From an uncultured Myxococcales bacterium (GTDB lineage: Bacteria; Myxococcota; UBA4151): 16,394 nt of DNA. This document shows positions 1-16,394 of this stretch, one piece after another. The DNA lies in contig CAXGWI010000075.1 of the NCBI GenBank assembly GCA_964013405.1, positions 1 through 16,394 of the forward strand, written 5' to 3'. Under the pieces are notes generated by a model, which worked only from the letters and a program-made list of their open reading frames with translations, was not told where the DNA came from and ran no database searches. The stretch's first letter is position 1, and each line of letters opens with the position of its first letter. The translations under genes and the position numbers were made by a program.

Positions 1-2
1 CA

Positions 3-1064: not shown

Positions 1065-4000
1065 GTTGGGTCCTTCTTAGTCTGCTCATTGCAGCACCGG
1101 CGGAGACCGGTGGCAAGCGCAGCCCGCGGGTCGTTGAAGCCGCAGGGAAGCGTGATGCGGGGCCTCAAGGTCCCCAATTGCGTTTCCACGATGTGCGCTT
1201 GGAGGTTGCCTCCGAGGTCGGTGAAGTTCGCAAGCGGCAGATTGCGATGATTGAGGAACTACTCGAACTCGAAGTGGATGGTAACCGCCGGGGCGACCTC
1301 CTCTTTCGTAAAGCCGAGTTGAAGCATGAGCGGGCGCGCTTTTTCAGCTTCTTGCGCGGTGCCGCGGAGGAAAAGCTCGGGGAAGCACAAGACAAGGGCG
1401 AGACAGCGATCGCTGCCGCCGAGGAGAAGGTCAAGGCGGCGAGCTTGGATGAGCGCCGGGCATCGCGAGAGGCGATCGCAGTTTATGATCGTATTCTGCG
1501 GGAGATTCCGTCCTACGAGCGGACCCCCGACGTCTTACATGCCTTGGGTCAAGCCTGGTGGGAGTTGGGGGTCAAAGAGGGCGCACTAGAGATCTACACA
1601 CGGATCATTCGGGAGTACCCAGACTCGGGGTTTGTCCCCGACGCGTGGGTCAGTTTCGGCGAGTATTACTTCGCAGAGCAGCAGTTAGAGTTAGCCCTCA
1701 AAGCCTACAAGAAAGCGGCAGCCTATCCCAAGCCAGAGGTTCAAGGTTTTGCGGAATACAAGTTGGGTTGGGTCTATTACAACCTGGGTGATTTTGCCGA
1801 AAGCTGTCTCCATTTTCAGCGGGTCATGAAGCTGGCGGCGGACGTTCAGGCCCAGGGCCATAAGAAGTTCACGCTCGACCGGGAGGCCCGCAAGGATTGG
1901 GTCACTGCATACGCCCACTTCGGCAATGCCGACACCGCCTTCGAGCGGATCCGCCGCATCGCACCGGAGCATATGCGACCGATGTCAGCCCACCTGGCCG
2001 ACCGCTGGATCGATGCCGGCCGGGATCAGGAGGCGAGCGCACTCCTTGATGACCTGATCGCCAATGGGGCCAGTGACCCCCTGCTGCCCAGCTATTATGC
2101 GAAGCAACTACGCGCAGTCCAACGCATGTTCAGCAAGGACCAGGTGGTGGAACGGGTGGGGAAGATTGTGGGTCGGCTCAAGTCCATCGACGCCCCCGAT
2201 GGGGAGACGGCCCTGAAGGCCTGGCGGCAGAGCTTGGACGAGGTTGATCTCGGTCTGCGCCGGATCGGTACCCTGTGGCATCAGGATGCTTTGAAGCTGA
2301 AGAATGAGAAGCTGATGGCCCAGGCCCAGAAGGTCTATGAACTGTACCTCTCGTTGTTCGCCGACCGGGATGAAGCTTACGAAATCCGATTTTACCATGG
2401 GGAAGCGCTCTACTCCTTGGGGCGCTTTGCCGAGGCTGGAGCCGAGTATCACGCCACCGTTCTCGCCAATCAGGAGGGGGAGTTTAGTGCGGACGCAGCC
2501 CTCGAGATGGTCCGCAGTTACGATAAACTCTCGGCCATCGCGACCGCCAACAAGGAGCCCCAGGATTCCGATGAGGCGAAGGCTCGCAATGCGAAGATGA
2601 TCGAGGCCTGTCGTTTGTATCTGCAGTTGGCTCCAACAGGGGATATGGCGGCGACAGCCCACTTTCGTATCGGCCGGGCCCACTATGACCGGGAGGAGTT
2701 AGAGGAAGCTTTGGCCTCCTTTGAGACGCTCCTCGGGGCCGGCGGTGACGGCGGGGCTGAGGGGGCAGAACGTCTACGTGTGGATCCGGGGCTCGCTGAA
2801 GTTTCGGCCAACTTAATTCTCGATATCTACAACTACCAGAAGGACTGGCGAAAGATCATTGAGCGGGCCCGCGGCTTCGTGGAAGACCCTCGCTTTCGCG
2901 ACAAGAAAGACTTCGTCGAGAAAACGACAGAGTTGGCCGACGGTGCGAGTTTTAAGGTTCGGTCTCTGGATTTAGCGGGCAAACCCCATGAGGAAGTGGC
3001 TGAGGGCTATCTGACCTATGTTCGAGAGCACCCGAGCTCTCGCTGGGCGGACCGGGCCATGTTCAACGCCGCCGTTCACTACGAGAAAGGTGGGCGTAAT
3101 GATCGGGCCATGGAGACACGTCGCCAATTCGTGAAGGACTTTCCAAAGAGCGAGCTGGTGGGTCGAGTCGACTTTCTCCTCGCCAACGCCGGTGTCAAAA
3201 CCGCGGACTATGAGAACGCGGCGACTCGTCTCGAGCGCTTCGCTCGGGCCAATCCCAAGGATGAGCGGGCTCGTTCTGCGTGGCTCGACGCCAGTGTCTA
3301 CCGAGAGGGGCTCGGGCAGTACAAGAAGGCGCTGGAAGACCGGCGTCGCTGGATTCGCTTGGCGAAGAAGGCGAAGAACGTGGAAAAGAAGCGGCTTCAG
3401 GCCGTTCAAATCAGCCTGGGCAAGATCATCGACAAGGTCGAGAAGCCGGGCCGAGCCGCTGGGTACTATGACCGCCTCGCTGCAAGTTTTGATGACCCAA
3501 CGGCCCAACTCCAAGCCCGGGGCGCGGCTGCTCGAGCCTGGCGGCAGATTCGTTCCAAGAGTGGTTGGGCTCGACAGGGCAAGGAGCGTTCCCAGCGTCG
3601 CCTCTCTGAAGCGGTGCAGCGTTACAAGGAGAAGGGGCTCAAACTGTCTGGTGAAGCGGCGAATGTGGTGGCTGAAGCGGAGCTCGCCTCCCTTGAAAAA
3701 GCATATACGGACTTCGGTAAGGAGCGACTGCCAAGTCCTGATCGTTTGGAGCGGTTTCAGCAGGCCCGAGAGACCATTGAGAATCGACTGGCTGAACTGT
3801 CGGCCTCCTACGAAAAGATCGTCGCGATCGGCAGTCGGACGTTCACCGTTGATGCCTTGGAGCGCATGGGCGGGCTACGCCAACGTTACATCGATATTCT
3901 GATGAAGGTGCCCGCTCCCAGTGGCCTGACGGAGGTGCAGCGAGAGCTTTGGCAGGACAAGCTGACGGAATGGACCATGCCCTTGGAGACCCAAGCGCTC

Positions 4001-4414
4001 GTTTATTACGAAAAATGCGCTGAGTTAGCCCGAAAGGCCGCCCTTGAGCGCCCGGCCGTCAGTCGGTGCATGGATGTACTGAAGGCGAAGAAGCCCCAGG
4101 ACTACCCCCGCCTGATCGAGGAACTTCCGCCCCAGCAGGGCCTTCGCTTGGCCCGCCATTCACCCTTCGGTGCCTTAGCGGTGAGCAGCGCAGACTTAGC
4201 CTACCTTGCGGAGCTGATGAAGCGTGGTCGGGTTCCCACACCTGATGGCTTGCCGAGTCCCGATGAACTGGCCCCATCCGAGCCCAAGGAGACCGCCCAG
4301 GAAGACCGTGTCGCTGATGCGGAAGAGGAAGCGCGCCGCACCATGCAAGATGATGGCACGGTGGAGACCGACGAAGGCCAAGCCTCCTCCGACTTCTTCG
4401 AGGAGGAGGAATGA
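1061..4414 (+). CDS. gltD: GltD/AgmU/NfsD-family large periplasmic TPR protein, 1117 aa
   Basis: GTG start overlaps the gltC stop (GTGA), with AGGAG at 1050-1054. Short hydrophobic N-terminus, probably a signal peptide. Many TPR motifs typical of the family (IIREYPDSGFVPDAWVSFGEYYF, AEYKLGWVYYNLG, YEIRFYHGEALY, ADRAMFNAAVHYE). Acidic, disordered C-terminal tail. Size and position fit GltD. Confidence 0.82.
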   Translation: MSWVLLSLLIAAPAETGGKRSPRVVEAAGKRDAGPQGPQLRFHDVRLEVASEVGEVRKRQIAMIEELLELEVDGNRRGDLLFRKAELKHERARFFSFLRGAAEEKLGEAQDKGETAIAAAEEKVKAASLDERRASREAIAVYDRILREIPSYERTPDVLHALGQAWWELGVKEGALEIYTRIIREYPDSGFVPDAWVSFGEYYFAEQQLELALKAYKKAAAYPKPEVQGFAEYKLGWVYYNLGDFAESCLHFQRVMKLAADVQAQGHKKFTLDREARKDWVTAYAHFGNADTAFERIRRIAPEHMRPMSAHLADRWIDAGRDQEASALLDDLIANGASDPLLPSYYAKQLRAVQRMFSKDQVVERVGKIVGRLKSIDAPDGETALKAWRQSLDEVDLGLRRIGTLWHQDALKLKNEKLMAQAQKVYELYLSLFADRDEAYEIRFYHGEALYSLGRFAEAGAEYHATVLANQEGEFSADAALEMVRSYDKLSAIATANKEPQDSDEAKARNAKMIEACRLYLQLAPTGDMAATAHFRIGRAHYDREELEEALASFETLLGAGGDGGAEGAERLRVDPGLAEVSANLILDIYNYQKDWRKIIERARGFVEDPRFRDKKDFVEKTTELADGASFKVRSLDLAGKPHEEVAEGYLTYVREHPSSRWADRAMFNAAVHYEKGGRNDRAMETRRQFVKDFPKSELVGRVDFLLANAGVKTADYENAATRLERFARANPKDERARSAWLDASVYREGLGQYKKALEDRRRWIRLAKKAKNVEKKRLQAVQISLGKIIDKVEKPGRAAGYYDRLAASFDDPTAQLQARGAAARAWRQIRSKSGWARQGKERSQRRLSEAVQRYKEKGLKLSGEAANVVAEAELASLEKAYTDFGKERLPSPDRLERFQQARETIENRLAELSASYEKIVAIGSRTFTVDALERMGGLRQRYIDILMKVPAPSGLTEVQRELWQDKLTEWTMPLETQALVYYEKCAELARKAALERPAVSRCMDVLKAKKPQDYPRLIEELPPQQGLRLARHSPFGALAVSSADLAYLAELMKRGRVPTPDGLPSPDELAPSEPKETAQEDRVADAEEEARRTMQDDGTVETDEGQASSDFFEEEE
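4401..4410 (+). promoter_or_regulatory. Shine-Dalgarno for gltE, formed by the terminal Glu codons of gltD
   Basis: AGGAGGAGGA directly precedes ATGATG (4411/4414). Confidence 0.7.
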
Positions 4415-5496
4415 TGAGAGTATACGCCCTCCTCGCCCTGTCCCTGTCCCTCGGTGCCTGTGCGACGGCTTCCAAGGTGGCGAAGCCGACGGAGATGGAC
4501 GAACGGGAACGTCGCCCTGACCTGGGTGATTTTCTCGGTGACGTGGACCCAAGTCGAAGCACAGAGGCCGAAGGGGAGAAGAGATTCTTGCTGATGGGCC
4601 GCCTGTTGGTGGCCGGGCGCAGCCCTTCCGAGGTGCTGACGCTGGCGAGGGAGCGAGGTGAGTCCGACCTGAGCCGGGCTGCGCTGCTCGCCCGATCCGG
4701 TGACGAGGCCATGGCCCTCAGTATTGCGAAACGGGAAGGCGAGGCCGGCTTGCCGATGGCCCTTGGAATTCTCGCGAAACAGGGGCGGTGGGACGAAGCG
4801 GAGGCCCTGGTCGAAGGGGGTGATAACTCGGATTTACGCACCTCATTGCGAGCCTGGATCGCCCATGAGAAGGGGCGGAACGAAGAGGCCATCAGTGGTT
4901 TGCGTAGCCATCTCTATGCCAAGGGTACAGATTTGGACGCCTATCGAGTTTTGATTCGTATCTTCATGGCCCAGGGCAAGAATCGCCTTGCTCGCCTGGC
5001 CTGTCAGGGCGCACTCCGCATCGCACCGCAAGAGGCAGATATTCATTATCTGCTGGGCCGGGTCGATGCTGAGTTGGGCCGGAATGCGGGGGCCCGGAGG
5101 TCCTTCGAGGCGGCGATTAAGTTTGATCCAAGTCATCTCGGTGCTCGTACGGAACTCGCTCGGACGGGCCTGGCCCACCTCGATTACAAGACCGCTCTTG
5201 AGCACATGACCGTCGCCTATCGCTTGGCGCCGGGCGATGAAGAGATCGCGTTACTCACCGCGGTGAGCCTGCGCGCGAACGGCGCCTGTGCCGAGGCTTC
5301 GACCCTGCTCAAGGATTGGACCGATCGCTCACAGCGAGCGGTTTTTAATCTGGGCGTGTTGTATTTGCGCTGCCTCGATGATCCCAAAGAAGCCCTGAAG
5401 TTGTTGCAACGGTATGTGGAACAGGCCGAGCCTAAACAGGACCATCAAGTGCATCTGCTCCTTCAAGAAGCCCAGTTGTTGAGTGAAACAGAATGA
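4411..5496 (+). CDS. gltE: GltE/AglT/NfsE-like TPR lipoprotein, 360-361 aa (start at 4411 or 4414)
   Basis: Lipoprotein signal MMRVYALLALSLSLGA|C with an LGAC lipobox. C-terminal TPRs (LARLACQGALRIAP, IHYLLGRV, AVFNLGVLYLRCL). Lies between gltD and gltF. The N-terminal half is divergent. Confidence 0.68.
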   Translation: MMRVYALLALSLSLGACATASKVAKPTEMDERERRPDLGDFLGDVDPSRSTEAEGEKRFLLMGRLLVAGRSPSEVLTLARERGESDLSRAALLARSGDEAMALSIAKREGEAGLPMALGILAKQGRWDEAEALVEGGDNSDLRTSLRAWIAHEKGRNEEAISGLRSHLYAKGTDLDAYRVLIRIFMAQGKNRLARLACQGALRIAPQEADIHYLLGRVDAELGRNAGARRSFEAAIKFDPSHLGARTELARTGLAHLDYKTALEHMTVAYRLAPGDEEIALLTAVSLRANGACAEASTLLKDWTDRSQRAVFNLGVLYLRCLDDPKEALKLLQRYVEQAEPKQDHQVHLLLQEAQLLSETE

Positions 5497-5546
5497 GCGA
5501 CGCAACGTTGTTCTCTCGCGGGCGATAAAGAATCTAGCGCGCGATG

Positions 5547-5575
5547 TCGCCAGATCCGGTCTTTGCTGGTATTCA
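5547..5575 (+). promoter_or_regulatory. Candidate internal sigma70-like promoter upstream of gltF
   Basis: TCGCCA (5547-5552), a 17-nt spacer, then TATTCA (5570-5575) with an extended -10 TG at 5567-5568. It lies in the only sizeable intergenic gap (100 nt). The consensus match is weak. Confidence 0.25.
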
Positions 5576-5584
5576 GGCCCTAGA

Positions 5585-5591
5585 AGGGGAG
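5585..5591 (+). promoter_or_regulatory. Shine-Dalgarno for gltF
   Basis: AGGGGAG ends 5 nt upstream of ATG 5597. Confidence 0.65.
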
Positions 5592-5596
5592 CAGGC

Positions 5597-5860
5597 ATGT
5601 TGAAGCATTGCATTCTTTTGCTTGGCCTCCTGGTGGCCGGCTCGGCGCATGCGCAGAACGCAGACGTGTCGCTTGAAGCCGACGCCGAGGCCGGTGAGAC
5701 CACGGTGCTGACCTTCACTGATGACGATGCGATCGAGGGCTCACTCCGGTCGCCTGATGGGGAGTTTTTCGAGACTCGAAAGCGCACTCGTCATCGAAAT
5801 CTCATTCGAATTCGGCGCCATTTCCGCCGGGAGATCCTTCGGGGCGTTCACAGACTTTGA
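5597..5860 (+). CDS. gltF: GltF/CglF/NfsF-family small secreted protein, 87 aa (start corrected from 5483 to ATG 5597)
   Basis: AGGGGAG Shine-Dalgarno at 5585-5591. Sec signal MLKHCILLLGLLVAGSAHA. Family motif LTFTDDDAIEGSLRSPDGE...NLIRIRRHFRREI. Directly upstream of gltG. Confidence 0.82.
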   Translation: MLKHCILLLGLLVAGSAHAQNADVSLEADAEAGETTVLTFTDDDAIEGSLRSPDGEFFETRKRTRHRNLIRIRRHFRREILRGVHRL

Positions 5861-5881
5861 TGGTCCGAGGGCGAGGCAAGC

Positions 5882-7678
5882 TTGGCTAAGCGTTTCATCT
5901 TCACAGTGGTTGTTCCCCAGGGGCAAGAACGCCGCGTTGAGTTCGTCGGTGAGTCGGCGACGATCGGTCGTCTAAGCACCGCTGATATCCGTGTCCACGA
6001 TGCCACGGTGAGCCGCCTCCATGCCCGTGTGTACGTTGCGGAATCCGGAGTGTTACGAGTGGAATCTACCGGTGGAGCCGGTGGGATGATGCTCAACGGG
6101 CAAGTCACGGAGGATGGTGAACTGGTCCCCGGGACCGTCATCGCCCTGGGCCGATCTGAGGTCACCTACGTTGGTGAAGAAGATGCCGTCGATTCTGTCG
6201 TGGCAAGCACTCGCCTCAGCGATGTCTTCGAAGCCTCCCCAGATGTTCGTGCCGCCCACGAGCAGATGGAACAGCGCAAGCGTTCAGACACCCATCGGGT
6301 TCAGCCGCCCCTCACCGAAGCATCGACAGGGGCGGGGACAGGCCCTGTGGATCGGGAAACCAGTGTCGTCCTGGTCGATATGGAAGAGCCTATCTCCAGT
6401 GACAACGCCCAACTTGAGATTAACCTGAGTTGGCAGGATCGACAGATCACCCTCGAGCACTTCGAGACGGGGCCGATCCGAGTGGGCCAGGAACTGGAGA
6501 TTCCCATCGACGAAGCGTCGCTGCAAGGCATGACGCTCTTCGATCGAAGCCCGAGTGGCTGGTTTGTGACCGTTCTGCCGCAGATGAACTGGCGGCCCAA
6601 GGGCGCCCCAACTCCGGTGGATGTCGCCTCGGTCCAGGGGAGCTTCCAAGGGCCCAGCGGCCCCGCGGCACCGATCGGTGTCCATGACGCTGGTGAGATG
6701 CAACTTGGCGAGATTAAGCTCAGCTATCGACTCGTCGCGCCGGGCCACGTGATCCCCATCGCCTACTTCAGCCAGATCAATTTCAATCTCATCAACTTGA
6801 TGCTGTTGAGTTTCCTGGCCCATGCCGCCCTTCTCATCGCCTTCAGTTTGCACCCACCCCAGGTCAAAACCTTGGAAGAATGGTTGACCGAGCGCCCGAA
6901 TCGCTTCGCTCGTCTCATTGTGGAGCCAAAGAAGGAGAAGAAACAGAAGAAGAAGGTGGCCAAAGCCCGCAAGGTGGAAGGCAAGAAGAAGGACAAACCC
7001 AAGGCAGGCAGTGACGAGGGCAAACAGAAGCCGAAAGAAAAGGCGGCAAAGAGTCAGGCCACAGAGGAAGACGTCAAAGCGGTCGAAAAGAAGTTAGCGA
7101 CCCTGTTTGGTGATTCCCAGGGAGCAGCTTCGAAGGTGTTGGGTGATGGCGCGCCAGATATCACTCGAGCCCTTGGGGAGATCGCCGGTGAAGACCCTCT
7201 TGCCGGCTTGGTTGGCTTGCAGACATCAGGCCGGGCAAATAACGATGGGCGCTTGGTCGACACCCGCTTGAAAACCCGGGGGAGAGCTGGCGGTAACCGG
7301 AACTACGGCGCGGATCTCGCCAAGCTAAAAAAGAAGAAGAAGGTCGATATCGCAGTGAGTTCAGGGCCGGCCGATGTCCGGGGCGCCCTGGATCCAGAGG
7401 TCGTTCGACGGGTCGTGCGCCGTCACCGGGCTCAGATCAAGTATTGCTATGAGTTAGAGCTTCTTCGGACCCCCGGTTTAGAGGGTAAGGTCCAAGTGCA
7501 ATGGGTGATCGGACCCGATGGTCGAGTCAACCGAACGAAGATCACCAGTACGACCATGAAGAGTGCGAACGTGGAGGCCTGTATTCAGCGTAAGATCCGT
7601 ACGTGGGTCTTCGATCAGCCGAAGGGGGGTGGGATCGTTGTCGTGAATTGGCCCTTCTTCTTTAAGGAGGCCGGCTGA
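5882..7678 (+). CDS. gltG: GltG/PglI/NfsG: N-terminal FHA domain, one TM helix, Lys/Gly-rich periplasmic linker, TonB_C-like (AgmX/PglI C-terminal) domain, 598 aa
   Basis: FHA motifs IGRLSTADIRV.DATVSRLHA. TM helix LINLMLLSFLAHAALLIAFSL at about 6788-6850. Conserved RFARLIV after the TM. C-terminal GALDPEVVRRVVRRHRAQIKYCYE..L...PGLEGKV.V.WVI...C...IRTW.F..PKGGGIVVVNWPF.F. TTG start with GAGG at 5873-5876. Confidence 0.88.
   Translation: MAKRFIFTVVVPQGQERRVEFVGESATIGRLSTADIRVHDATVSRLHARVYVAESGVLRVESTGGAGGMMLNGQVTEDGELVPGTVIALGRSEVTYVGEEDAVDSVVASTRLSDVFEASPDVRAAHEQMEQRKRSDTHRVQPPLTEASTGAGTGPVDRETSVVLVDMEEPISSDNAQLEINLSWQDRQITLEHFETGPIRVGQELEIPIDEASLQGMTLFDRSPSGWFVTVLPQMNWRPKGAPTPVDVASVQGSFQGPSGPAAPIGVHDAGEMQLGEIKLSYRLVAPGHVIPIAYFSQINFNLINLMLLSFLAHAALLIAFSLHPPQVKTLEEWLTERPNRFARLIVEPKKEKKQKKKVAKARKVEGKKKDKPKAGSDEGKQKPKEKAAKSQATEEDVKAVEKKLATLFGDSQGAASKVLGDGAPDITRALGEIAGEDPLAGLVGLQTSGRANNDGRLVDTRLKTRGRAGGNRNYGADLAKLKKKKKVDIAVSSGPADVRGALDPEVVRRVVRRHRAQIKYCYELELLRTPGLEGKVQVQWVIGPDGRVNRTKITSTTMKSANVEACIQRKIRTWVFDQPKGGGIVVVNWPFFFKEAG
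7663..7670 (+). promoter_or_regulatory. Strong Shine-Dalgarno for the gltH-like gene, embedded in the gltG 3' end
   Basis: TAAGGAGG ends 7 nt upstream of ATG 7678. Confidence 0.78.
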
Positions 7679-8211
7679 TGGCGCGCTTGCTGGTGGTCGG
7701 ATCGCTCCTTTTATCGAGCTTTCCTGCCCGCGCTGACTGGCGGGAGCGTTCAGGCATCGATGTTTTCGTTCAGCCCCTGCTGGGCCTTCCCGTCGGGACC
7801 TTGGGGGGGCGGGGCTTTGCCCCAGGCGGGGGCTTTCGTTTGGCTGTGGGTCATTTTGATCGCCTCAAGCAGCGGGCGAGTCGTTTCGAGTTGACCTACG
7901 ATGGCTACAGCGGCTCCGCTGTGTCGCCGCAAACCGGCGATTTCTTTCAGATGAGTGCGGCCATTGGCCTTGGTTTGCAGTTCAAGTTGAAGGACCGCTG
8001 GATCGGTCAGCCCTCTGGAAGTTTGGGCTTTAGTCTGGCGCAAGCTGGCCTAGAACCTGTGGGGGGTGTTTTTGGTTCTGGAGGCTTTGCCCTCTTAAAG
8101 CGGGCCCGGCTGCGGCATGTGCATTATGGGGTGGAAGCCCATGGAGGTTGGTGGCTTGGAGCCGGTGGTGGATTTATCCGAGCAGGACCGATCATCCGAT
8201 GGCAACGCTGA
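7678..8211 (+). CDS. gltH: Small outer-membrane beta-barrel protein, GltH/CglE/NfsH-like, 177 aa
   Basis: TGATG overlap with the gltG stop and a perfect TAAGGAGG Shine-Dalgarno at 7663-7670. Sec signal ending in PARA. Gly/aromatic-rich amphipathic beta-strands. Occupies the gltH position. The symbol rests mainly on synteny. Confidence 0.55.
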   Translation: MARLLVVGSLLLSSFPARADWRERSGIDVFVQPLLGLPVGTLGGRGFAPGGGFRLAVGHFDRLKQRASRFELTYDGYSGSAVSPQTGDFFQMSAAIGLGLQFKLKDRWIGQPSGSLGFSLAQAGLEPVGGVFGSGGFALLKRARLRHVHYGVEAHGGWWLGAGGGFIRAGPIIRWQR

Positions 8212-9908
8212 GCCCCCTCCTTCAGTTACTCACCCACGCCGAGGCCACCGAGTCTCTCGCCGATCCCTCGGCCTATGCCGAGTTGGGGGAGAAGGCCGCT
8301 GAATTGGGGCAGTGGGCGCTGGCCTACAAAGCCTTTCAGTTCGCCCGGCGCCGGGGACAGCATCGTCGGCCCTCGGAAACCGAGTGGCGAGTGCTCATGG
8401 ACTACGAACATCTGGCGGCCCTGATCGACCGGGCCTCCGAGTACCAACGGCTCGATCTGTTGGAGTGGGTTTGTGCCAACTACGCAGGCCACCCTGACTT
8501 GCATGCCCAAGCGGTCAGCGCCTCCTATGCGCTCAATGAGTTCGGGCGTCCCACCACCTTGGATCGGATGGAGCGCCAGGCCCATCCAAGCGAGGCCGTC
8601 GCCATCGAAAGATACCTCGAAGGAGAGAGGCTTTGGCTCGGTTGGGGCTTACGCTGCCTGGGCGCCTGCTTCGCCGATCGCATCCTTCGTCTCGGTTTGC
8701 AGGGGATCCATCCCTTCGATGAGGATGTAGAGAAACTGGCCCATTGGGTCGAGATGATCGAGGGCGCTGAAGCAGCGGTTCCTTACTATCGGGCCCTCTA
8801 CCAGGCGGGTCTCGGGGGGGACGGGCTGCGGTTGGCGCTGGTGATGGGGGCTGCCCGAGAAAATCGTACACTCGCTCTTGAAGCCACCCAGTCGGCCGAG
8901 GAACGAAGCCGTTTGGGCCTATGGGTTCTGCAGCGGGGCCTGGAGCCTGGCTTGGACCGCCGCTGGCTCCAGGATCTCGACGAGGCGGACCTAGAGACCT
9001 TGATCGCCCAAGAGGCGGAACGGCTTGCAGCGGGACAAGAGGCGCGAGTACGGGCCGACGATCTTCGCTTTTCCCCCGATTTGGCCGGTCGGTTCCAGGC
9101 TTTGTATTTGGCCCACGGTCAGTTGGCCGAAGTGATCGCTTGCCTCGAGATCCGCCTGCCCCATGCGGAACCGGAGATCCGTCCACTCCTGCTTCGGATG
9201 CAAGCGAGCCTCTATCGTGATCTGGGTCGTGACGAGTTGGCCCAGCGGGTTGTCCTCGATGCCCTGGCGCTCGACCCGGCCGATGCCTCGACCGTTGATC
9301 TGGTGCTGGAGTTTGCCGGTCAGATGAAGCGTTTTGAGGTGTTTTCCCAGGCGCTGATTCAGCACGCTCGAGCATCGAAGTCGGCCAGCCTCATGCTCGC
9401 GGGCGCAACGCTCGCTGCACCCCACCAAGTGACGTTGATTCTGGAGGAGTTGGCTGGCTTCGAACTGCCGGTCGACGATTTGATCGACCTCGCTGTGGGC
9501 TGCGAGCAGCGGGCCTTGGGGCTTGGGCTGTTGGCTGAACTGGCGGAGGTTGGCCGCTTGGGTCTCGAGCAGCATCTCGCTGTCGCTCGGGATCTGGTCA
9601 GCATGGCTCGCGGTGACGGGGAGATGCTGGAACAGGCCCTGCGTTTGCTCGACCAGTTACCCGAGGAAGAGGAGCGTGCTCAGCGGCTTCGTGTCTCTGC
9701 ACTCTTGGAACTTGGCCGAGGCCATGAAGCCCTGATTTTGATGCACGAAGGGGATTTTCCCAAAGAGGGTGCTTGGGCGATCCATCGGGCCCGGGCGCTG
9801 ATGCAGGTCGGGGAGCGCACCGAAGCAGGTCAACTTCTTGAATCGGCCGATGCCGCCGGTAGTGTGGCGGCTCGCGGCCTGTTGGAACGACTCCGGGAGT
9901 CGAAGTGA
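8199..9908 (+). CDS. Cytoplasmic all-helical, degenerate TPR protein, about 569 aa; positional equivalent of the large gene (agmV) between gltH and gltI
   Basis: ATG 8199 is preferred over the ORF-track start at 8148, giving a 13-nt overlap with the upstream gene (AGGA at 8184-8187). Leu/Ala/Glu/Arg-rich with TPR-like stretches (LLLRMQASLYRDLGRDELAQRVVLDALALDPAD). No signal peptide. Confidence 0.6.
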   Translation: MATLSPLLQLLTHAEATESLADPSAYAELGEKAAELGQWALAYKAFQFARRRGQHRRPSETEWRVLMDYEHLAALIDRASEYQRLDLLEWVCANYAGHPDLHAQAVSASYALNEFGRPTTLDRMERQAHPSEAVAIERYLEGERLWLGWGLRCLGACFADRILRLGLQGIHPFDEDVEKLAHWVEMIEGAEAAVPYYRALYQAGLGGDGLRLALVMGAARENRTLALEATQSAEERSRLGLWVLQRGLEPGLDRRWLQDLDEADLETLIAQEAERLAAGQEARVRADDLRFSPDLAGRFQALYLAHGQLAEVIACLEIRLPHAEPEIRPLLLRMQASLYRDLGRDELAQRVVLDALALDPADASTVDLVLEFAGQMKRFEVFSQALIQHARASKSASLMLAGATLAAPHQVTLILEELAGFELPVDDLIDLAVGCEQRALGLGLLAELAEVGRLGLEQHLAVARDLVSMARGDGEMLEQALRLLDQLPEEEERAQRLRVSALLELGRGHEALILMHEGDFPKEGAWAIHRARALMQVGERTEAGQLLESADAAGSVAARGLLERLRESK

Positions 9909-12900
9909 GCGACCCGCTGCAGGAACTCAGCGACTGGCTCGACCGTCCTGAGCAATCGGTGCTCGGACCCAAGGTTGTATTGGATGCTGTGAAGATTGAG
10001 CCCCCGGAAGGGCGCAGCGAGCTGCTCGACGGCTTATGGTCGCGTTTGCAGGGCACCGGCCTCGCTCTTGAACTGGCCAATCAACTGGACGAATGGGCCC
10101 AGGAGTCGCCCGAAGCCCGAGCGGATGCATTGGCTGCCCAGACCCTCATCCGGGCCCACGCCCCCGGCGCACTCATCGAAAATGCTTGGCTACGGGAATT
10201 GCGACGGCAAGGCCCGGAGCAGTTGGATTGGCGATGGTTTGCCGAACGGGCATCGAGTGTGGCCCTTGTCGAGGCCGCCGCTCTTGGGGAGCGCCTCGAC
10301 CAAGAGGGACGACGGGTGGTGGCTTCGGCCTTACTGTCCCGTCGTCGGGATGAGTTGTTCGATTTGGTTGAATCGGTTGGTGTGGCTGCCTGCGGCCTCG
10401 ATCATCATGGCCTGGCCCGTGCTTTTGGTGGCCGGTCTTTGGCTCGGCTCTCGGAACCAGACGACGACATCCTCGCCCTGGAGGTCCTTCGGCTCCGCTA
10501 CGAGGGCGGAGATGAGACCGCATGTGCCCATGCCCTGCGCCGGTTGGCCGGGATGGACAGCCCCTCGCAGCAGCATGAAATGGTGGCTGGCTGGCTGATC
10601 CAAGAGGGGCAGCGTGGCGAAGCCATGGATCTTTTGCGTTCCTCCATCAGCGATCAGTCGCTCCGCTTGCTCTGGGAAGAGGCGCAATGGGTCGAGATCA
10701 CAGAACGTCTTGAGTCCGTCGCTGAGCGGAGCGAGTCACAGACTGTCTTCTTGGCCCGGGCCCTCTCTGAGTCGGGCAAAGGGGGGGCCACCGCGCTGTT
10801 GGAAGACGCGCCTGGGCCTGAGGCCTATCGACTTAAAGTGGGTCTGGCTTTGGAGGAGGGGCGATCGGAAGGGCTCGCTAATCTACTTAAAGAGGGGCGT
10901 GATCATGGTCTCGATGGTGACCGGGCCTGGATGGCTTTTCTGCTTCTTGATGGCCCCCACCCGAAGATTGCCAGCGAGCTGGTCATCGACCAACTAGAAC
11001 ATGGTCCGAGCCCGGCTGCTCTCGATCGGTTGGTGGCTGCCTGTCCCCGTCGAGAGGATCAGGTTCGTGTGCTCGAGCACCTATTGAACCAGGAGCCGAC
11101 GCCTGAGCGGTGGGAAAATCGCTTAGAACTTGCGGAGGCAAAGACGCGTCCGGGGCTATTGGCCAGACGGGCGTTGTGGTGGGATGATGATCGAGAGGCC
11201 TTGGCCGATCTGCGGGCGGCGGGTCAGGCCGGGCGCTCGGCTTCTGAGCAGTTGGATCTCGTCGGCCGGCTCTTGGTCAAGCACCCCCAGGCCATGGCCC
11301 TGGCCGATGAGTTGGTTCACCTGGGCTTGCGCACCCAGGACCTGGGGGCAGTCGTCCATCCTTGTCTAGAAGCGGCGCGACGTCAGGCTGCGGTCGGTGG
11401 TGCCCGCCTGATCGCTCGAATCGGCGGTAAGCTCGTGGGCTGCGGTGCAACCCAGCAATTGGGTGTCTTGCTTTCTGAAGCCCGTGGCTTGGCGCCAGAC
11501 TTGCCCGAGGTGATCGCTTTGTGGGCTGCGGTGGACGCGGAGGAGGGCGATCTCGCCGCGGCCCGCACACGCTTGATCGCTGCCGCATTGGAGCGCCCCA
11601 GCGACAAAGCCGGTGAAACCCTGGCCCTTTTGGCCCTCGATTACATGGAGCCAGCGGATCCTGGGACCGTCTCCTTGGCTCGCTTGTGGCCCCAGCAGCA
11701 TCGCTTGGTTGAGGCCTATTGCGAAGCGAGGTTGGCGAAAGGGGAGTCCCTAGAGTTATCGATCCTGTCCCAAGTCCGTGGCATGCCAGCCGACCTCCTT
11801 AGAAGTCTATGGCTGCGGGGCCTGGAAGGGGATCCCGCAGAGCTTGCAGCGACGGTCGAGTTATCCGATGGCGAAGCCCTGGACCAACTGGTTCGTCATG
11901 GCATCGACCAGCGGGCGCTTGGCTTCCTACGGCGTTTGGCAAGTCGCCTGCCGGATCCGGATCACGCTCTGTTAGACTGGGCGAAGCGGTCGTTGGACGT
12001 GGGGCGCCCGCAGTTAGCCTACGACCTGGTCGTCGGTGAGCCTGAGGCTCGGGGCAAAGAGGAACTCGAGCTGCTCCTCCATGCCCTCTCTCTCGGTGCG
12101 AAGGCCGATGAAGACCGGCTGTACCGGGAGGGGCTGAGGGCCCTTGAGTTGGAGATCGACAGCGACCACTTGATCGAACTCGTTCTCCGTTTGGGCGGGC
12201 GCCGGGATCTCTTGAAGCCGCTCCTCAAGCGGAACCCGGAGCGCATCGAATTGATCTCCTTGTGCCGAGACCATGCACCGGAGTTATTGAAGTCGATCCA
12301 ATCCCCCGTGGTTTCCGCTGCGCTCTGTCAGCCCGGTCAGGCGGTCAACACAGTGGATCTCGTCTTCGGTCAGGCGGCCGAAGCCATTGGGCGACATCCT
12401 CTTTTACTGGTTTGGTGGGCCGAGTGCGTCCCCGACCGGGAGGTGCGGCTGCTGATGGAAGCGGCCGAAGCCAATCCGGGGCCCTGGGGAGCGCAGCAGT
12501 TGCTGCGAGTGGCACGCAGTCAGGTGGGTGAACAACGGGGCGATGCGGTGACAACCCTTCGAGCTGCTCTCGACATGAACAGCGACTCCGTGCCGGTCCG
12601 CCGTGCTCTGTCCGACTTGCTGCGGGAAGACCAGCCGGAAGCAGCCCTGGAGTTGTTGGAGCCCGTGTTGCGAGGGCCAGACCGGGATCAAAGTGATCTG
12701 TATCGTTTGGCCCGATTGAGTCATCGCTTGGAGGACTTTGAGGCCTCGGCCAATGCCTTTGAGCAGGCCGGCGTCCCGAGTCGTTTGGACCTGCTCCAAG
12801 AAGCAATCCCGGTGTTTGCCAAGTTGGGCCGGAATGAGGTCGCACGCGTCTGGATCCGGGAGTTGATCCGGTTTTGGGGGGAGGGGCTGAGTCGGACCGA

Positions 12901-14662
12901 GTTGGCCTTGGAGTACACCCGGCTCGCACGGGTTGAGTTGAATCTCAGTGCGCTGGAGGTGGCCCAGGCCTGTGCCCGTCGAGCGATGGAGTTGGATGAG
13001 ACCAGTCCGGAGGCGACGGAACTTCTTGGGCGCACCTTGTTGGAGAGTGATGAGCACTTTGATGAGGGGCTCCAACTCCTCGAGGAGGCAGCCCGCCGCT
13101 GCCCTCGTCGCAGACGAGCCGAGTTGCTTGCCGAAGTGGGCATGTTGTCCGAAGACCCCTGGCACCGGGCCGACCTTTTGGAAGAGGCCCGCCGTCTCGG
13201 GCTGGCCCTGGGCTCCTCCCAGTTGTATTGCCTTGCCGAAGCGCTCAACCGGACGGCCCGTCGGGAAGAAGCCCTTGAGATGATCGAGGCGGCTGTGGAC
13301 TGTTGCGAAGAGCCCGCGACCCAGCGGCAGTATCTCGTTTGGATGGGGGATTTGGCCTTCCGTAAGTTGCAACGCCTGGAGCCGGCCTTGAAGGCTTGGC
13401 AGCGGGCGCTGCGGGCCGATCCACGGGATGAGGAGGTCCTTCATCGGGTGACTGCTGCCTGCCAGGAGAGCAGTCGTTATGAAGAGCTCGTCGACACCCT
13501 GGTGCGGGTGATCGAGCATGAGCATGACGATGAGCGCCGGCACCGGCTCTGGCAGCGGGTGGCCGAGACCGCTGATGAGCATCTCACTCGCCCGGATTTA
13601 GCCGCTCGCGCTTATGGAGAGATGCTTCAGATTCGAGACTCGATTCCACTGCGGGAGCAGTTGGCAGCCCGCTTGGTCGACGAAGGCAAGGGGGATGAAG
13701 CTCAACAGGTGCTCCTCGAGGCCTGGACACGCCAACGTCTCAGTGAAGCGGGGGCGACGCTGCTGTGCCGTAGCCTTGAGTTGGGGGGGCGGACGCGCCA
13801 AGCCCTTGCGGTTGACGACGTGGAACGTTTGCGAGGTCGGTCGGGCCAGCGCGATGAACAACGCCATGCGTGGCTCGAAACCTTGGAGCAACCGGAGCCC
13901 CTTTCGGTGACCGAGTTGCGAAGTTTGATGCCCCAGATTCTCCGGGATGATGCGGGACAACATCTTGCGGAAGCATGGAGCGTGGTTCACCCCTTGGTGA
14001 AACAGGATCCAAGCCGGACTGGGGGGTGGCTCAAGCGCCGACGGCAACTGATGGATGAAGGAGATGAACGCCTCATCACTCGCTCCTTCTACCAAGTCGG
14101 GCGCCTCTTTCGGCAGCCTGAAACAAGTCTCTACTTGGAGCCGGGAAGCAGTGACGGGGTTGCGGTCCTACCGGCCCAGCCGCTCTGTCTGGTGGTGGGT
14201 AGTCAGGCGCCACTGCTCCGTGTGGACGATCCTGCGGTCGTTCGTTTTCATGTGGCGCGCATGATGATGATGACTCGCCCAGAGGTGGCGCTGCTGACCC
14301 TGCTCGGTTTGGAGCGAACTCAGGATTTATGTGCGGCGATCGGGCTGAGGGCCACGGTGGTCAGCCAGCGTCGTGTCGCCCAATGGCGGGCCCTGCTCAG
14401 TGGTGGCCTGGAGTTCCGGCTCCGGCGATCCTTGGACCACCTACCGATGCAGCACATGGTTCGTTTGGCTGCCGCCGCAGAAATGATGTCTCTGCGGGCC
14501 GGTTTAATCGCCGCTGGCGCGTTGAATCTCTCGCTCGACCTGGCCTTGCAGGGAGAACCTGTCTTGGCTCGTCTGGATCAAACGGAATTAGTCCATAGCT
14601 TGGGCCGTTTCTGGGCCCGAAGTGGATTGGCCTATCGAATCGGGGAGGTGCGAAGTGGTTGA
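9905..14662 (+). CDS. gltI: Large cytoplasmic TPR scaffold, GltI/AgmK-like, 1585 aa, with the C-terminal domain typical of myxobacterial giant TPR proteins
   Basis: GTGA overlap with the upstream stop and GGAG at 9896-9899. TPRs are clearest in the C-terminal half (YLVWMGDLAFRKLQRLEPALKAWQRALRADPRD, LWQRVAETADEHLTRPDLAARAYGEML). C-terminal LVVG...VVRFHVAR....RP....LRAGLIAAG domain. Immediately upstream of a gltJ-like gene. Orthology is inferred from architecture and synteny. Confidence 0.55.
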   Translation: MSDPLQELSDWLDRPEQSVLGPKVVLDAVKIEPPEGRSELLDGLWSRLQGTGLALELANQLDEWAQESPEARADALAAQTLIRAHAPGALIENAWLRELRRQGPEQLDWRWFAERASSVALVEAAALGERLDQEGRRVVASALLSRRRDELFDLVESVGVAACGLDHHGLARAFGGRSLARLSEPDDDILALEVLRLRYEGGDETACAHALRRLAGMDSPSQQHEMVAGWLIQEGQRGEAMDLLRSSISDQSLRLLWEEAQWVEITERLESVAERSESQTVFLARALSESGKGGATALLEDAPGPEAYRLKVGLALEEGRSEGLANLLKEGRDHGLDGDRAWMAFLLLDGPHPKIASELVIDQLEHGPSPAALDRLVAACPRREDQVRVLEHLLNQEPTPERWENRLELAEAKTRPGLLARRALWWDDDREALADLRAAGQAGRSASEQLDLVGRLLVKHPQAMALADELVHLGLRTQDLGAVVHPCLEAARRQAAVGGARLIARIGGKLVGCGATQQLGVLLSEARGLAPDLPEVIALWAAVDAEEGDLAAARTRLIAAALERPSDKAGETLALLALDYMEPADPGTVSLARLWPQQHRLVEAYCEARLAKGESLELSILSQVRGMPADLLRSLWLRGLEGDPAELAATVELSDGEALDQLVRHGIDQRALGFLRRLASRLPDPDHALLDWAKRSLDVGRPQLAYDLVVGEPEARGKEELELLLHALSLGAKADEDRLYREGLRALELEIDSDHLIELVLRLGGRRDLLKPLLKRNPERIELISLCRDHAPELLKSIQSPVVSAALCQPGQAVNTVDLVFGQAAEAIGRHPLLLVWWAECVPDREVRLLMEAAEANPGPWGAQQLLRVARSQVGEQRGDAVTTLRAALDMNSDSVPVRRALSDLLREDQPEAALELLEPVLRGPDRDQSDLYRLARLSHRLEDFEASANAFEQAGVPSRLDLLQEAIPVFAKLGRNEVARVWIRELIRFWGEGLSRTELALEYTRLARVELNLSALEVAQACARRAMELDETSPEATELLGRTLLESDEHFDEGLQLLEEAARRCPRRRRAELLAEVGMLSEDPWHRADLLEEARRLGLALGSSQLYCLAEALNRTARREEALEMIEAAVDCCEEPATQRQYLVWMGDLAFRKLQRLEPALKAWQRALRADPRDEEVLHRVTAACQESSRYEELVDTLVRVIEHEHDDERRHRLWQRVAETADEHLTRPDLAARAYGEMLQIRDSIPLREQLAARLVDEGKGDEAQQVLLEAWTRQRLSEAGATLLCRSLELGGRTRQALAVDDVERLRGRSGQRDEQRHAWLETLEQPEPLSVTELRSLMPQILRDDAGQHLAEAWSVVHPLVKQDPSRTGGWLKRRRQLMDEGDERLITRSFYQVGRLFRQPETSLYLEPGSSDGVAVLPAQPLCLVVGSQAPLLRVDDPAVVRFHVARMMMMTRPEVALLTLLGLERTQDLCAAIGLRATVVSQRRVAQWRALLSGGLEFRLRRSLDHLPMQHMVRLAAAAEMMSLRAGLIAAGALNLSLDLALQGEPVLARLDQTELVHSLGRFWARSGLAYRIGEVRSG
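14644..14650 (+). promoter_or_regulatory. Shine-Dalgarno for the gltJ-like gene
   Basis: GGAGGTG lies just upstream of GTG 14655. Confidence 0.72.
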
Positions 14663-15461
14663 TTCTTCCAAGCCAACTGCTGACCGAAGCTGGGTACTTC
14701 TCGGAGAGACCGAGCCGTATAGCCGAGATGCCCTCGACTTGATGGTGATGGATGGCCTCATCGAACTCCAAGATCAGGTGGAACCGGCCGGTGGGGGCCA
14801 GCCGATCACGGTCGGGGAGGTTTTGGGAATTCTACCCGCCTTGCCGGTCAGCGAGCGTCTGGATGCCCTTGCCGAGGGGCTGGAGTTACCAGAGGGCCAG
14901 ACCATCGACACGATGAAGAGCGACGAACTCCCCCGGGTGGTGAGCATGATCCCTCGGGTCGATACCATGCCCGTCTCGAAGCCAAAGTCGACGCCCATCT
15001 TGACACCCCAGCGTTTGGGGATCGTGGTGAGCCTGGTTCTCGGGCTCGGTATTGTCGGCTTTCTGCTCATGCCGCGGGGCGAAGACCGGGAGCGAGAAAG
15101 GGCTGCCCAGCAATCAGACACCGACGGGGCGGTTGCAGATCCAGCGGTGAAGGTTGTGTCTGTGCAGCGCCCGGCGGAACAACTCCTGCGACCGGGGCAG
15201 AAACGTCTGACGGTCGAGGACAAGCAAGGCGTCCTCGAAAGTGAGCTAGAAGATTTGGAGAGCTGCCTGCCCGACAAGGCGAAGGACAGCATCAAGATTC
15301 AGTTCAAGATCAAGCCGAATGGGGCGCCATTCGCCATTCGGCTCGATACAGAGGACACCTCGGTGAACGCCTGCGTCCGAGCGAAGGTCTTTCGGTGGCG
15401 CTTTCCCCGCTTTAGCGGCCCGAGCGATGCGCTGGCGTTTCGTCTGGGAGGCCCGGGCTGA
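14655..15461 (+). CDS. gltJ: Short GltJ/AgmX-like inner-membrane protein: degenerate GYF_2, one TM helix, TonB_C-like (AgmX/PglI C-terminal) domain, 268 aa (start corrected to GTG 14655)
   Basis: GGAGGTG Shine-Dalgarno at 14644-14650, inside the gltI 3' end. GYF_2-like SWVLLGETEPYSRDALDLMVMDGLIELQDQV. TM helix LGIVVSLVLGLGIVGFLLM. C-terminal LESC...IKIQFKIKPNG...NACVRAKVFRWRFPRFSG resembles the GltG C-terminal domain. Confidence 0.62.
   Translation: MVDSSKPTADRSWVLLGETEPYSRDALDLMVMDGLIELQDQVEPAGGGQPITVGEVLGILPALPVSERLDALAEGLELPEGQTIDTMKSDELPRVVSMIPRVDTMPVSKPKSTPILTPQRLGIVVSLVLGLGIVGFLLMPRGEDRERERAAQQSDTDGAVADPAVKVVSVQRPAEQLLRPGQKRLTVEDKQGVLESELEDLESCLPDKAKDSIKIQFKIKPNGAPFAIRLDTEDTSVNACVRAKVFRWRFPRFSGPSDALAFRLGGPG
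15446..15451 (+). promoter_or_regulatory. Shine-Dalgarno for the TIGR04552-type gene
   Basis: GGGAGG ends 9 nt upstream of ATG 15461, inside the last codons of gltJ. Confidence 0.65.
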
Positions 15462-16393
15462 TGCGGCGGCAGTTGGAAGCTGAGGTTGCGAGCCTGCTTC
15501 AGGGGGTCAGCCCCATCGACTGGGGTCGCCTCCGGCACTTCAGCGATGAGGGGATCGCCGACCTGTTGACCAGTAACGGGTTTAATCTCGAGAGCGAGGC
15601 GGACTGGGATCACCTCGACCGCCTTCGGGATCGGGGGATCAGTTATATGAACCGAGCCCTCGATATGGTGGTCGATGAAGACATTTTTGAGATGCCAGTG
15701 GATGGGCTGATCCACTTGGCTGCTCGGCGTAAAGAGGGGCGGCGACGACGTCAGCAAGCCTGCGTGCTGCTGAAAGTCATGCACCTCATCCAGCGGCTCG
15801 ATGCCCGTAGTCTACGCTTTGCTGCCCGAGTCTCCGATGCGGAGTTGACGACCCATCTCCTCGGCAAAGTCGGTGAGTGGGTCGACAGCCTGCGACGGCA
15901 GGGTCTGGTGATCGTGGAGTGGGGAGGTGGGCACAAGAGGCCCGACGCCATGGTGACCAAGCTCCTGCTCAAGGCGAGTAGTCAGGTGGGCAATGTCCAC
16001 GACCAAGTCCGGGTCCGACTGGTGACAGAGGATCGACCCACACTGGAAACGGTGATTGAAGAACTGGTTCGTCGAATCCTGCCGTTCAACATGATTCTGG
16101 CCGGCGAAAGTGTGAACACCTTGATGGAGATCGGGGAAGGAGCCCTCAAGGGACTTGTTCCCGAGCACGCGGTCCCAGACCGCCCCTATAATCCCCAGAG
16201 TTCTGGCGATTATCGGATCATTAACCTGGTGGGCGACGTTCCCCTTGCGATCGATCCGACCAGTTATGGGGTGCCGATAAGCCAGCAGGAACGGCACGGC
16301 CGGATCGTCCACCTCCGTTGCGAGTTCCAGTTCGTTGACGTGGCAACGGCCCAGGATAACGAGCGCGGTGAGCAGGGGCATGCTGCCTATAAA
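15461..16393 (+). CDS. TIGR04552-type protein with a RelA/SpoT-synthetase-like (nucleotidyltransferase) domain, >311 aa, 3'-truncated; not in the supplied ORF track
   Basis: Manual translation from ATG 15461 (TGATG overlap with the gltJ stop, GGGAGG at 15446-15451) stays open to the window end: MRRQLEAEVASLLQGVSPIDW...QACVLLKVMHLIQRLDAR...HKRPDAMVTKLLLK...VHDQVRVRLVT...LPFNMILAGESVNTL...YNPQSSGDYRIINLVGDVP...EFQFVDVATAQDNERGEQGHAAYK. These motifs match my recollection of the myxobacterial TIGR04552 family. Confidence 0.82.
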   Translation, partial: MRRQLEAEVASLLQGVSPIDWGRLRHFSDEGIADLLTSNGFNLESEADWDHLDRLRDRGISYMNRALDMVVDEDIFEMPVDGLIHLAARRKEGRRRRQQACVLLKVMHLIQRLDARSLRFAARVSDAELTTHLLGKVGEWVDSLRRQGLVIVEWGGGHKRPDAMVTKLLLKASSQVGNVHDQVRVRLVTEDRPTLETVIEELVRRILPFNMILAGESVNTLMEIGEGALKGLVPEHAVPDRPYNPQSSGDYRIINLVGDVPLAIDPTSYGVPISQQERHGRIVHLRCEFQFVDVATAQDNERGEQGHAAYK

Positions 16394-16394
16394 C

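Follow-up and report, generated by a model that had tools for sequence, protein, structure and literature searches.

A TIGR04552-family gene behind gltJ

The window analyzed here is a 16,394-nucleotide stretch of DNA from an uncultured Myxococcales bacterium, comprising the whole of contig C75, and it ends in a gene of the TIGR04552 family whose product we regard as a divergent, probably active RelA/SpoT homolog (RSH)-type synthetase, encoded directly behind a gltJ-like gene of a gliding-machinery (glt) run. All features of the window described below lie on the forward strand. The open reading frame (ORF) occupies positions 15461-16393, encodes 311 amino acids (aa), and is open to the contig end; close relatives (89-91% identity) measure 324 aa, and the window ORF is therefore about 13 aa short. 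The gene as a whole (15461-16394, with the ∼13 C-terminal residues missing) was assigned from the family profile and a predicted fold. Its start codon (ATG, 15461-15463) overlaps the stop codon of gltJ (TGA, 15459-15461) in the sequence TGATG (15459-15463), from which we infer translational coupling of the two genes, and a Shine-Dalgarno-like GGGAGG (15446-15451) lies 9 nt ahead of the ATG. Both signals had been called in the original prediction, as had five motif positions that all proved exact, namely HKRPDAMVTK (15932-15961), DQVRVR (from 16001), a Tyr (16211), EFQ (16322), and a His (16379).

The gltJ-like gene (14655-15461) encodes a short protein of 268 aa, counted from a GTG at 14655 that is the inferred start, with one hydrophobic segment and an AgmX/PglI C-terminal domain. 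This protein is atypical: its C-terminal domain (NF033768, E = 6e-6, below the cut-off) and its position after gltI are kept, and a domain scan detected neither a zinc-ribbon (ZnR) nor a GYF domain. Neither domain is detectable in the GltJ-like protein of a genome from the same genus (G019), GltJ of the sister genus carries ZnR as well as GYF, and a protein with ZnR and GYF domains is encoded elsewhere in the window's genome, on contig C1.

Upstream lie a gltI-like TPR gene (9905-14662; 1585 aa, short for a GltI; E = 1e-15 with our own GltI profile) and, at 1-9908, gltC (partial), a TPR gene in the place of gltD, gltE, gltF, gltG, and two genes without assignment. All glt models that match this run score below their cut-offs. 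The genes follow one another on one strand with gaps of −16 to +100 nt, and overlaps occur at most other junctions as well. Since gltC, which usually belongs to the separate G2 cluster, directly precedes the G1-type genes, the window holds a single glt run. A promoter and terminator scan of 14000-16394 gave no signal above shuffles. In the same-genus genome (L033:13499-16974), ∼150 nt separate the TIGR04552 gene from a downstream carbon-nitrogen hydrolase gene, after which come an unassigned ORF and a gene for a UvrD helicase.

Family membership and predicted fold

The window ORF is a member of both TIGR04552 (183 bits; cut-off, 125) and TIGR04562 (174.4 bits; cut-off, 140). It has zero Pfam matches, so that the gathering score of PF04607, the RelA_SpoT family (27 bits), is not reached, and the Myxococcus xanthus ortholog MXAN_4858 (18.9 bits) and the relative P0165 (24 bits) also stay below it. 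Among 40 TIGR04552 members, 23 matched PF04607 at an E value of at most 1 (best, 1.4e-5), and a profile built on eight RSH domains picked up 69 of the 124 full-length members with E values below 1e-3 (Z set to 1000). The hidden Markov model (HMM) search proposed in the original prediction thus succeeded for the two TIGR families, and for PF04607 it left the window ORF unmatched and only some relatives weakly matched. In a comparison of the family with the eight RSH domains by hhalign (probability, 90.6; E = 1.3e-6), the Syn1, Syn2, Syn4, and Syn5 motifs were in register. Sequence searches against solved structures, with either the ORF or the family profile, returned no significant match. Weak TIGR04552 matches at E values of ∼1e-4, in genomes G010, G035, and G073, were rejected as orthologs on the strength of the one in G010, which was its Rel.

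An ordered five-motif pattern, written with knowledge of both proteins that it matches, picked out 2 of the 4473 stop-to-stop ORFs of at least 200 aa in the window's genome, these being the canonical Rel, a separate full-length protein encoded on contig C29, and the window ORF; it matched none of 22,365 shuffled ORFs.

To describe the fold, we used an AlphaFold2 model of the full-length relative P0004, built from a 40-sequence alignment, with a predicted local distance difference test score (pLDDT) of 82. All 22 matches listed by Foldseek are RSH enzymes (we take 3l9d, which is among them, to be one as well), with RelP (6ex0) the best at E = 3e-5. In a wide VIA structure search, the top 10 rows were RSH-type, with Z scores of 12.4 to 7.9 over residues 124-316, and the best of them (Z = 12.4) superposed with a root-mean-square deviation of 2.8 Å across 131 residues; the first row of another nucleotidyltransferase-like fold came at Z = 7.7. 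An ESM Atlas model also reaches a PF04607 cluster (TM score of 0.66 by target). We hold the predicted RSH synthetase fold to be nearly certain for the TIGR04552 protein, and the structural idea that had been proposed from motifs is borne out by the fold search, the profile comparison, and residue conservation, together with an intermediate clade described below.

Pfam scans detected no HD, TGS, or ACT domain in the protein (324 aa at full length), leaving a single SYNTH domain preceded by a family-specific N-terminal helical domain without a clear fold match (aa 1-123; 15461-15829). This domain has conserved G15, S17, D20, D48, Y62, C101, and K105, the last of which is invariant (124/124). It is modeled with a pLDDT of 84.8, and its best structural match is RbcX (Z = 6.0); Foldseek gave no match below an E value of 1e-3, and no clear fold relative emerged. 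The domain may be the leftover of an HD domain.

Conserved residues of the putative active site

The residue counts below refer to 124 full-length members, aligned out of 147 candidates at ∼30% identity, and the labels Syn1 to Syn5 follow the original prediction. The Syn1-like segment (15926-15961) has G156-G157 in the place of the Rel Gly-Arg, followed by K159, A163, and K167; the Syn2-like segment (16001-16018) contains D181, R184 (Ala or Gly in aligned Rel sequences), and R186; the Syn3-like G-loop (16190-16225) contains N244, S247, Y251, and N255 (His in Rel); the Syn4-like segment (16322-16339) comprises E288, Q290, and D293, reading E-x-Q-x-x-D versus E-x-Q-I-R-T; and the Syn5-like segment (16358-16393), with N300-E301-x-G303, H307, and Y310-K311, is in register with the Rel AExGxAAHWxYK.

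The donor and metal residues are kept, with K159 in 119/124, K167 in 121/124, D181 in 119/124, R186 in 114/124, E288 in 121/124, and Q290 in 118/124 members. Position 163, Ala in the window protein, is Ser in 108/124 relatives; position 251 is Tyr in 93/124 and Phe in 26/124; and the Syn5 residues H307 (116/124), Y310 (119/124), and K311 (114/124) are likewise retained. All eight core residues are intact in 112/124 relatives. In FaRel2, ATP, Mg, and the base of the acceptor are bound by K66, S70, K74, D90, R95, Y128, E145, and Q147 (PMC11782079), and by motif order these correspond to K159, S/A163, K167, D181, R186, Y251, E288, and Q290.

A residue that differs from Rel is R184, the Arg at Syn2 D+3, present in 119/124 members of the myxobacterial clade and Ala or Gly in Rel. 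A sister clade, first reached through a phage-labeled record (120 of 199 matches were listed, and 96 of those 120 carry PF04607 on record), has Vampirovibrio and Melainabacteria as its nearest named matches among those listed. In an alignment of 118 of its sequences of at least 340 aa, (i) the motif D-x-x-G-x-R is kept, with Gly in 118/118; (ii) the motif YRS[LI]H has His in 92/118; and (iii) an invariant Lys (118/118) lies on the Syn1 strand. A basic residue thus occupies strand 1 in the sister clade, where strand 2 has Gly, and strand 2 in the myxobacterial clade, where strand 1 has small residues. We read this as a swap that would preserve a working ATP site; from the alignments, it looks like a compensating exchange between the clades.

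The Microcystis phage MaAM05 record (L091, MW495066.1, 115549-132607) carries glyS, gatD, secDF, and acpS together with a TIGR04552 gene, the protein of which is 93% identical to one from Vampirovibrio chlorellavorus. We rejected it as a phage-borne copy, since a gene that sits among glyS, gatD, and secDF and has this identity looks like a piece of a bacterial chromosome.

Distribution and gene neighborhood

TIGR04552 matched 153 of 201 sampled genomes of the phylum and scored above its cut-off in 148 (both this tally and that for GltC, given below, include the unpublished genome G180). For the neighborhood, we hand-picked 40 loci across 24 families; 30 short loci (L003-L032), which have 1.5-kb flanks, come from one family, and leave gltJ out of reach, do not enter the counts, and our profile for GltJ derives from 14 of the 40 loci, in which NCBIfam already called gltJ. 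In 23/40 loci, representing 12/24 families, a same-strand gltJ gene lies at most 2.1 kb upstream, and in 18/40 the distance is at most 250 bp. One further locus (L061) was dropped because its match was a GltG-like FHA protein. The gltJ-adjacent loci span three deep clades with five label changes on a quick tree of unknown root, a pattern that fits ancestral gltJ linkage with later losses. The survey suggested by the original prediction hence places the adjacency well beyond the window's genome, and the association with gliding genes is ancient and common without being obligatory.

In two genomes without a GltC match (G071 and G172; L114:7162-8826 and L115:6925-8710), the TIGR04552 gene is intact and immediately preceded by a gene for a GltJ that consists of ZnR-GYF-TM alone, with a convergent ffh after it. 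Strict dependence on the ZnR-GYF switch of GltJ was rejected, given that the window retains the gene with a GltJ in which neither domain is detectable. The only constant across these glt-context cases is adjacency to gltJ. The gene is single-copy in most genomes; its upstream neighbors vary or are gltJ, with no conserved antitoxin seen upstream, and a plasmid set yielded no full-length TIGR04552 match. In both sampled loci of family f24 (L052 and L053), it directly follows glnD. The named carriers (myxobacteria, Bdellovibrio, and Vampirovibrio) all belong to what we take to be predatory lineages. An indel in the Bdellovibrio gene arose in one evolved population (PMC9888234), suggesting that the gene is dispensable there.

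The M. xanthus ortholog

MXAN_4858 (ABF87272.1) belongs to the same TIGR04552/TIGR04562 family. A 2026 preprint (10.64898/2026.08.28.747804) describes it as an uncharacterized TIGR04552 gene near the G1 cluster and reports that insertions in it resemble glt insertions in development; the preprint's passages on 4858, ppGpp, and relA make no mention of RSH likeness. No further gene follows MXAN_4858 in its own orientation before convergent genes begin, which makes a polar origin of this glt-like phenotype unlikely. Through development, its RNA level of 51-103 reads per kilobase per million (RPKM) is close to the 84-117 of gltJ (PMC6791715). Development in M. xanthus is described as needing guanosine tetra- and pentaphosphate [(p)ppGpp], which has been attributed to Rel.

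The RSH homology itself has probably been listed before. Table S1 of a 2011 survey (PMC3153485), in whose searched text passages myxobacteria go unmentioned, contains an unclassified M. xanthus 'SYNTH' entry, YP_633016, and the dataset of PMC7229694 contains a third M. xanthus entry, 'Rel[S]'. With gltJ as YP_633021 (PMC3169522), counting along the genes places MXAN_4858 at YP_633017 or 018, one or two off from YP_633016. In genome G144, which encodes a protein identical to MXAN_4858, the matches to PF04607 up to an E value of 10 are Rel and the TIGR04552 gene only; both entries are therefore probably MXAN_4858, its homology having probably been caught by HMMs and, in the text covered by our search, left undiscussed. 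Our literature search, which covered neither the preprint supplements nor part of the PMC7229694 dataset, found no paper that joins the RSH likeness with the glt adjacency. Of the two, the M. xanthus adjacency is already in print.

Proposed function and alternatives

Family membership, motif register, residue conservation, and synteny, together with the predicted fold, lead us to favor, with slightly better than even confidence in the whole, a divergent RSH-type synthetase whose gene is an accessory co-expressed with the gliding operon; the gene is likely such an accessory and not a part of the motor. From the conserved residues, catalytic activity appears quite probable, and binding of Mg-ATP is likely retained, as is transfer of its pyrophosphate to a purine nucleotide at the ribose 3'-OH. 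In such an enzyme, K159, K167, D181, R186, E288, and Q290 would form the ATP donor site, R184 would stand in from the neighboring strand for the lost Syn1 Arg, and Y251 would stack on the base of the acceptor. On the acceptor side, the replacement of His by Asn and of QIRT by QxxD may, together with the extra N-terminal domain, yield a low-output, regulated enzyme, the nucleotide signal of which would modestly tune surface behavior and development without serving as an on-switch for the motor. GDP or GTP as the acceptor, with (p)ppGpp as the product, is our leading guess, though held at less than even confidence, and we are similarly doubtful of a functional tie to gliding.

Several observations weigh against this reading. 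With respect to the chemistry, (i) the place of the Syn1 Arg holds Arg in 0/124 members of the myxobacterial clade, being mostly Gly, Ser, or Asn; (ii) the Syn3 His is Asn in the window protein; (iii) the Syn4 QIRT is QxxD in both clades, with the Arg-Thr lost; (iv) the basic-residue swap is a single clade-level event, read from alignments and not from coordinates; and (v) family f7 (L038, L041, and L048) and P0065 form a natural pseudo-enzyme branch, in which the gene is intact and the catalytic residues are lost (in f7, K159E, D181E, and H307Q, with YK absent). The parallel with Syn1 to Syn5 that was originally drawn holds as a motif correspondence, and the case for (p)ppGpp synthesis is weakened by the changes at the Arg of Syn1, the His of Syn3, and the Arg of Syn4. 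With respect to gliding, (i) GltC matches 182 of the 201 genomes versus 148 for TIGR04552; (ii) 17/40 loci have no gltJ upstream and instead neighbor glnD, mutS, a PP2C phosphatase gene, or tolQR; (iii) family f3 has GltC in 17/17 genomes, and none of the 9 re-searched with our TIGR04552 family profile gave a match; (iv) in the sister genus, gltI-gltJ is followed by an unrelated gene, presumably Nif3-like, in the TIGR04552 place; (v) the gene occurs in 10/61 genomes of a second phylum; (vi) an earlier MXAN_4858 insertion (Pathak and Wall 2012) reportedly had no overt effect on motility, as recounted second-hand in the preprint (10.64898/2026.08.28.747804); and (vii) the two genes between gltJ and MXAN_4858 reach 550-5700 RPKM (PMC6791715). 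Among the sampled genomes, the gene is thus not present wherever Glt genes are, as a core Agl-Glt component would be, and points (ii) to (v) weaken the dedicated gliding-machine role first suggested for it. The f7 and P0065 copies, where the locus is seen, lie away from gltJ. In the second phylum, the run (L090, L092-L101) reads eno (upstream in six), TIGR04552, and a membrane-anchored Mrr-like gene, often with one more gene that we take to be CDP-alcohol phosphatidyltransferase-like; a membrane gene is next downstream in 10/10 by eye, with Mrr_cat found in the one scanned, and G201 has no GltC match.

The conserved donor side and changed acceptor side would also suit an RSH-fold pyrophosphokinase that is active on a different acceptor, for example the 3' end of an RNA or ATP/ADP, which the N-terminal helical domain would bring in. 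The tRNA-modifying FaRel2 has an N-terminal helical extension near its G-loop and a smaller positive acceptor patch (PMC11782079), and the 120-aa N-terminal domain here has invariant polar residues (K105). However, the mostly single copy, the steady expression, and neighbors among which no conserved antitoxin-like gene was seen set it apart from toxic enzymes of the tRNA or (p)ppApp type, and the N-terminal domain has no clear fold match; we consider this alternative unlikely. The Arg of Syn1, the His of Syn3, and the Arg of Syn4 missing in the myxobacterial clade, the substitutions in f7, and the two genomes with no GltC match that keep the gene right after a reduced GltJ would all be expected of a pseudo-synthetase that binds ATP, GTP, or (p)ppGpp without catalysis, as a nucleotide sensor or scaffold, possibly at the cytoplasmic side of the gliding complex. 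Such a protein is the less probable still, given that the metal-binding Asp and the Syn4 Glu and Gln are kept in 118-121/124 members, that the window keeps the gene though its GltJ has no detectable ZnR or GYF, and that the sister genus has a ZnR-GYF GltJ without the gene.

A further alternative leaves the favored chemistry untouched, being compatible with it and differing on function only: the place behind gltJ may be an ancestral gene order without functional meaning, the enzyme serving general physiology and using the operon's steady expression. The different conserved neighbors in the second phylum, the repeated loss of adjacency (the five changes on the tree), the many GltC-bearing genomes without the gene, and the second-hand report on motility make this reading nearly an even prospect; it is countered by the adjacency kept in 12/24 families, three deep clades, and 18 loci within 250 bp, and by an MXAN_4858 insertion phenotype that is glt-like and unlikely polar. 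At the opposite end, a hitherto unrecognized alarmone-synthetase subfamily with a rewired ATP site could make (p)ppGpp, or a new nucleotide, that acts locally on the GltJ/MglA switch and ties focal-adhesion assembly to nucleotide signaling, which we think improbable. M. xanthus GltJ engages MglA, MglB, and AglZ through its ZnR/GYF region (PMC11135422), and the link to MglA raised in the original prediction loses ground with a window GltJ in which neither domain is detectable.

Comparison with known systems

TIGR04552 is annotated without function, yet about three-quarters of the phylum's sampled genomes carry it and it extends to further phyla, and we conclude that it is a real and divergent RSH synthetase subfamily, and probably an active one. 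The RSH assignment indicates which reaction to assay and which residues to mutate (D181, E288, Y251, and R184), and MXAN_4858 allows this to be done in a model organism. A second, remodeled synthetase with a glt-like developmental phenotype, if true, would change the Rel-only picture of (p)ppGpp in M. xanthus, and the RSH fold may here have a new product or acceptor.

Compared with MXAN_4858 and other TIGR04552 relatives, the window protein, at full length, is shorter (324 versus ∼350-390 aa), with a shorter insert and Ala for Ser163, and its gene adjoins gltJ at the putatively coupled junction; in M. xanthus, gltJ and MXAN_4858 are separated by two genes. The same-fold toxic small alarmone synthetases (SAS) FaRel2, CapRel (7ztb), and Tas1 (6ox6) match the predicted model at Z scores of 8.1 and 6.6, and those that target tRNA share with it an N-terminal helical extension and an altered acceptor side; unlike toxic SAS modules, with no conserved antitoxin seen, TIGR04552 is a conserved, mostly single-copy chromosomal gene of 148/201 genomes. 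The closest likeness is to RelP and RelQ (6ex0, 6fgk, and 5dec) and to the SYNTH domain of Rel (8acu), with which the predicted fold of residues 124-316 aligns at Z scores of 9.9-12.4 and with which K, K, D, R, Y, E, Q, H, and YK are shared in the same order. The protein differs from them in (i) the missing Syn1 Arg, an Arg at position D+3 of Syn2, Asn in place of the Syn3 His, and QxxD for QIRT, as well as in (ii) G-loop insertions, the extra 120-aa N-terminal domain, an identity of 12-18%, and a score below the PF04607 cut-off. The Syn1 Lys/Lys, Syn2 Asp/Arg, and Syn4 Glu/Gln of RelP/RelQ-type enzymes are present, and the Syn1 Arg and Syn4 Arg-Thr are not; strict SAS membership thus fails on two residues, and TIGR04552 is therefore best filed as a new RSH subfamily.
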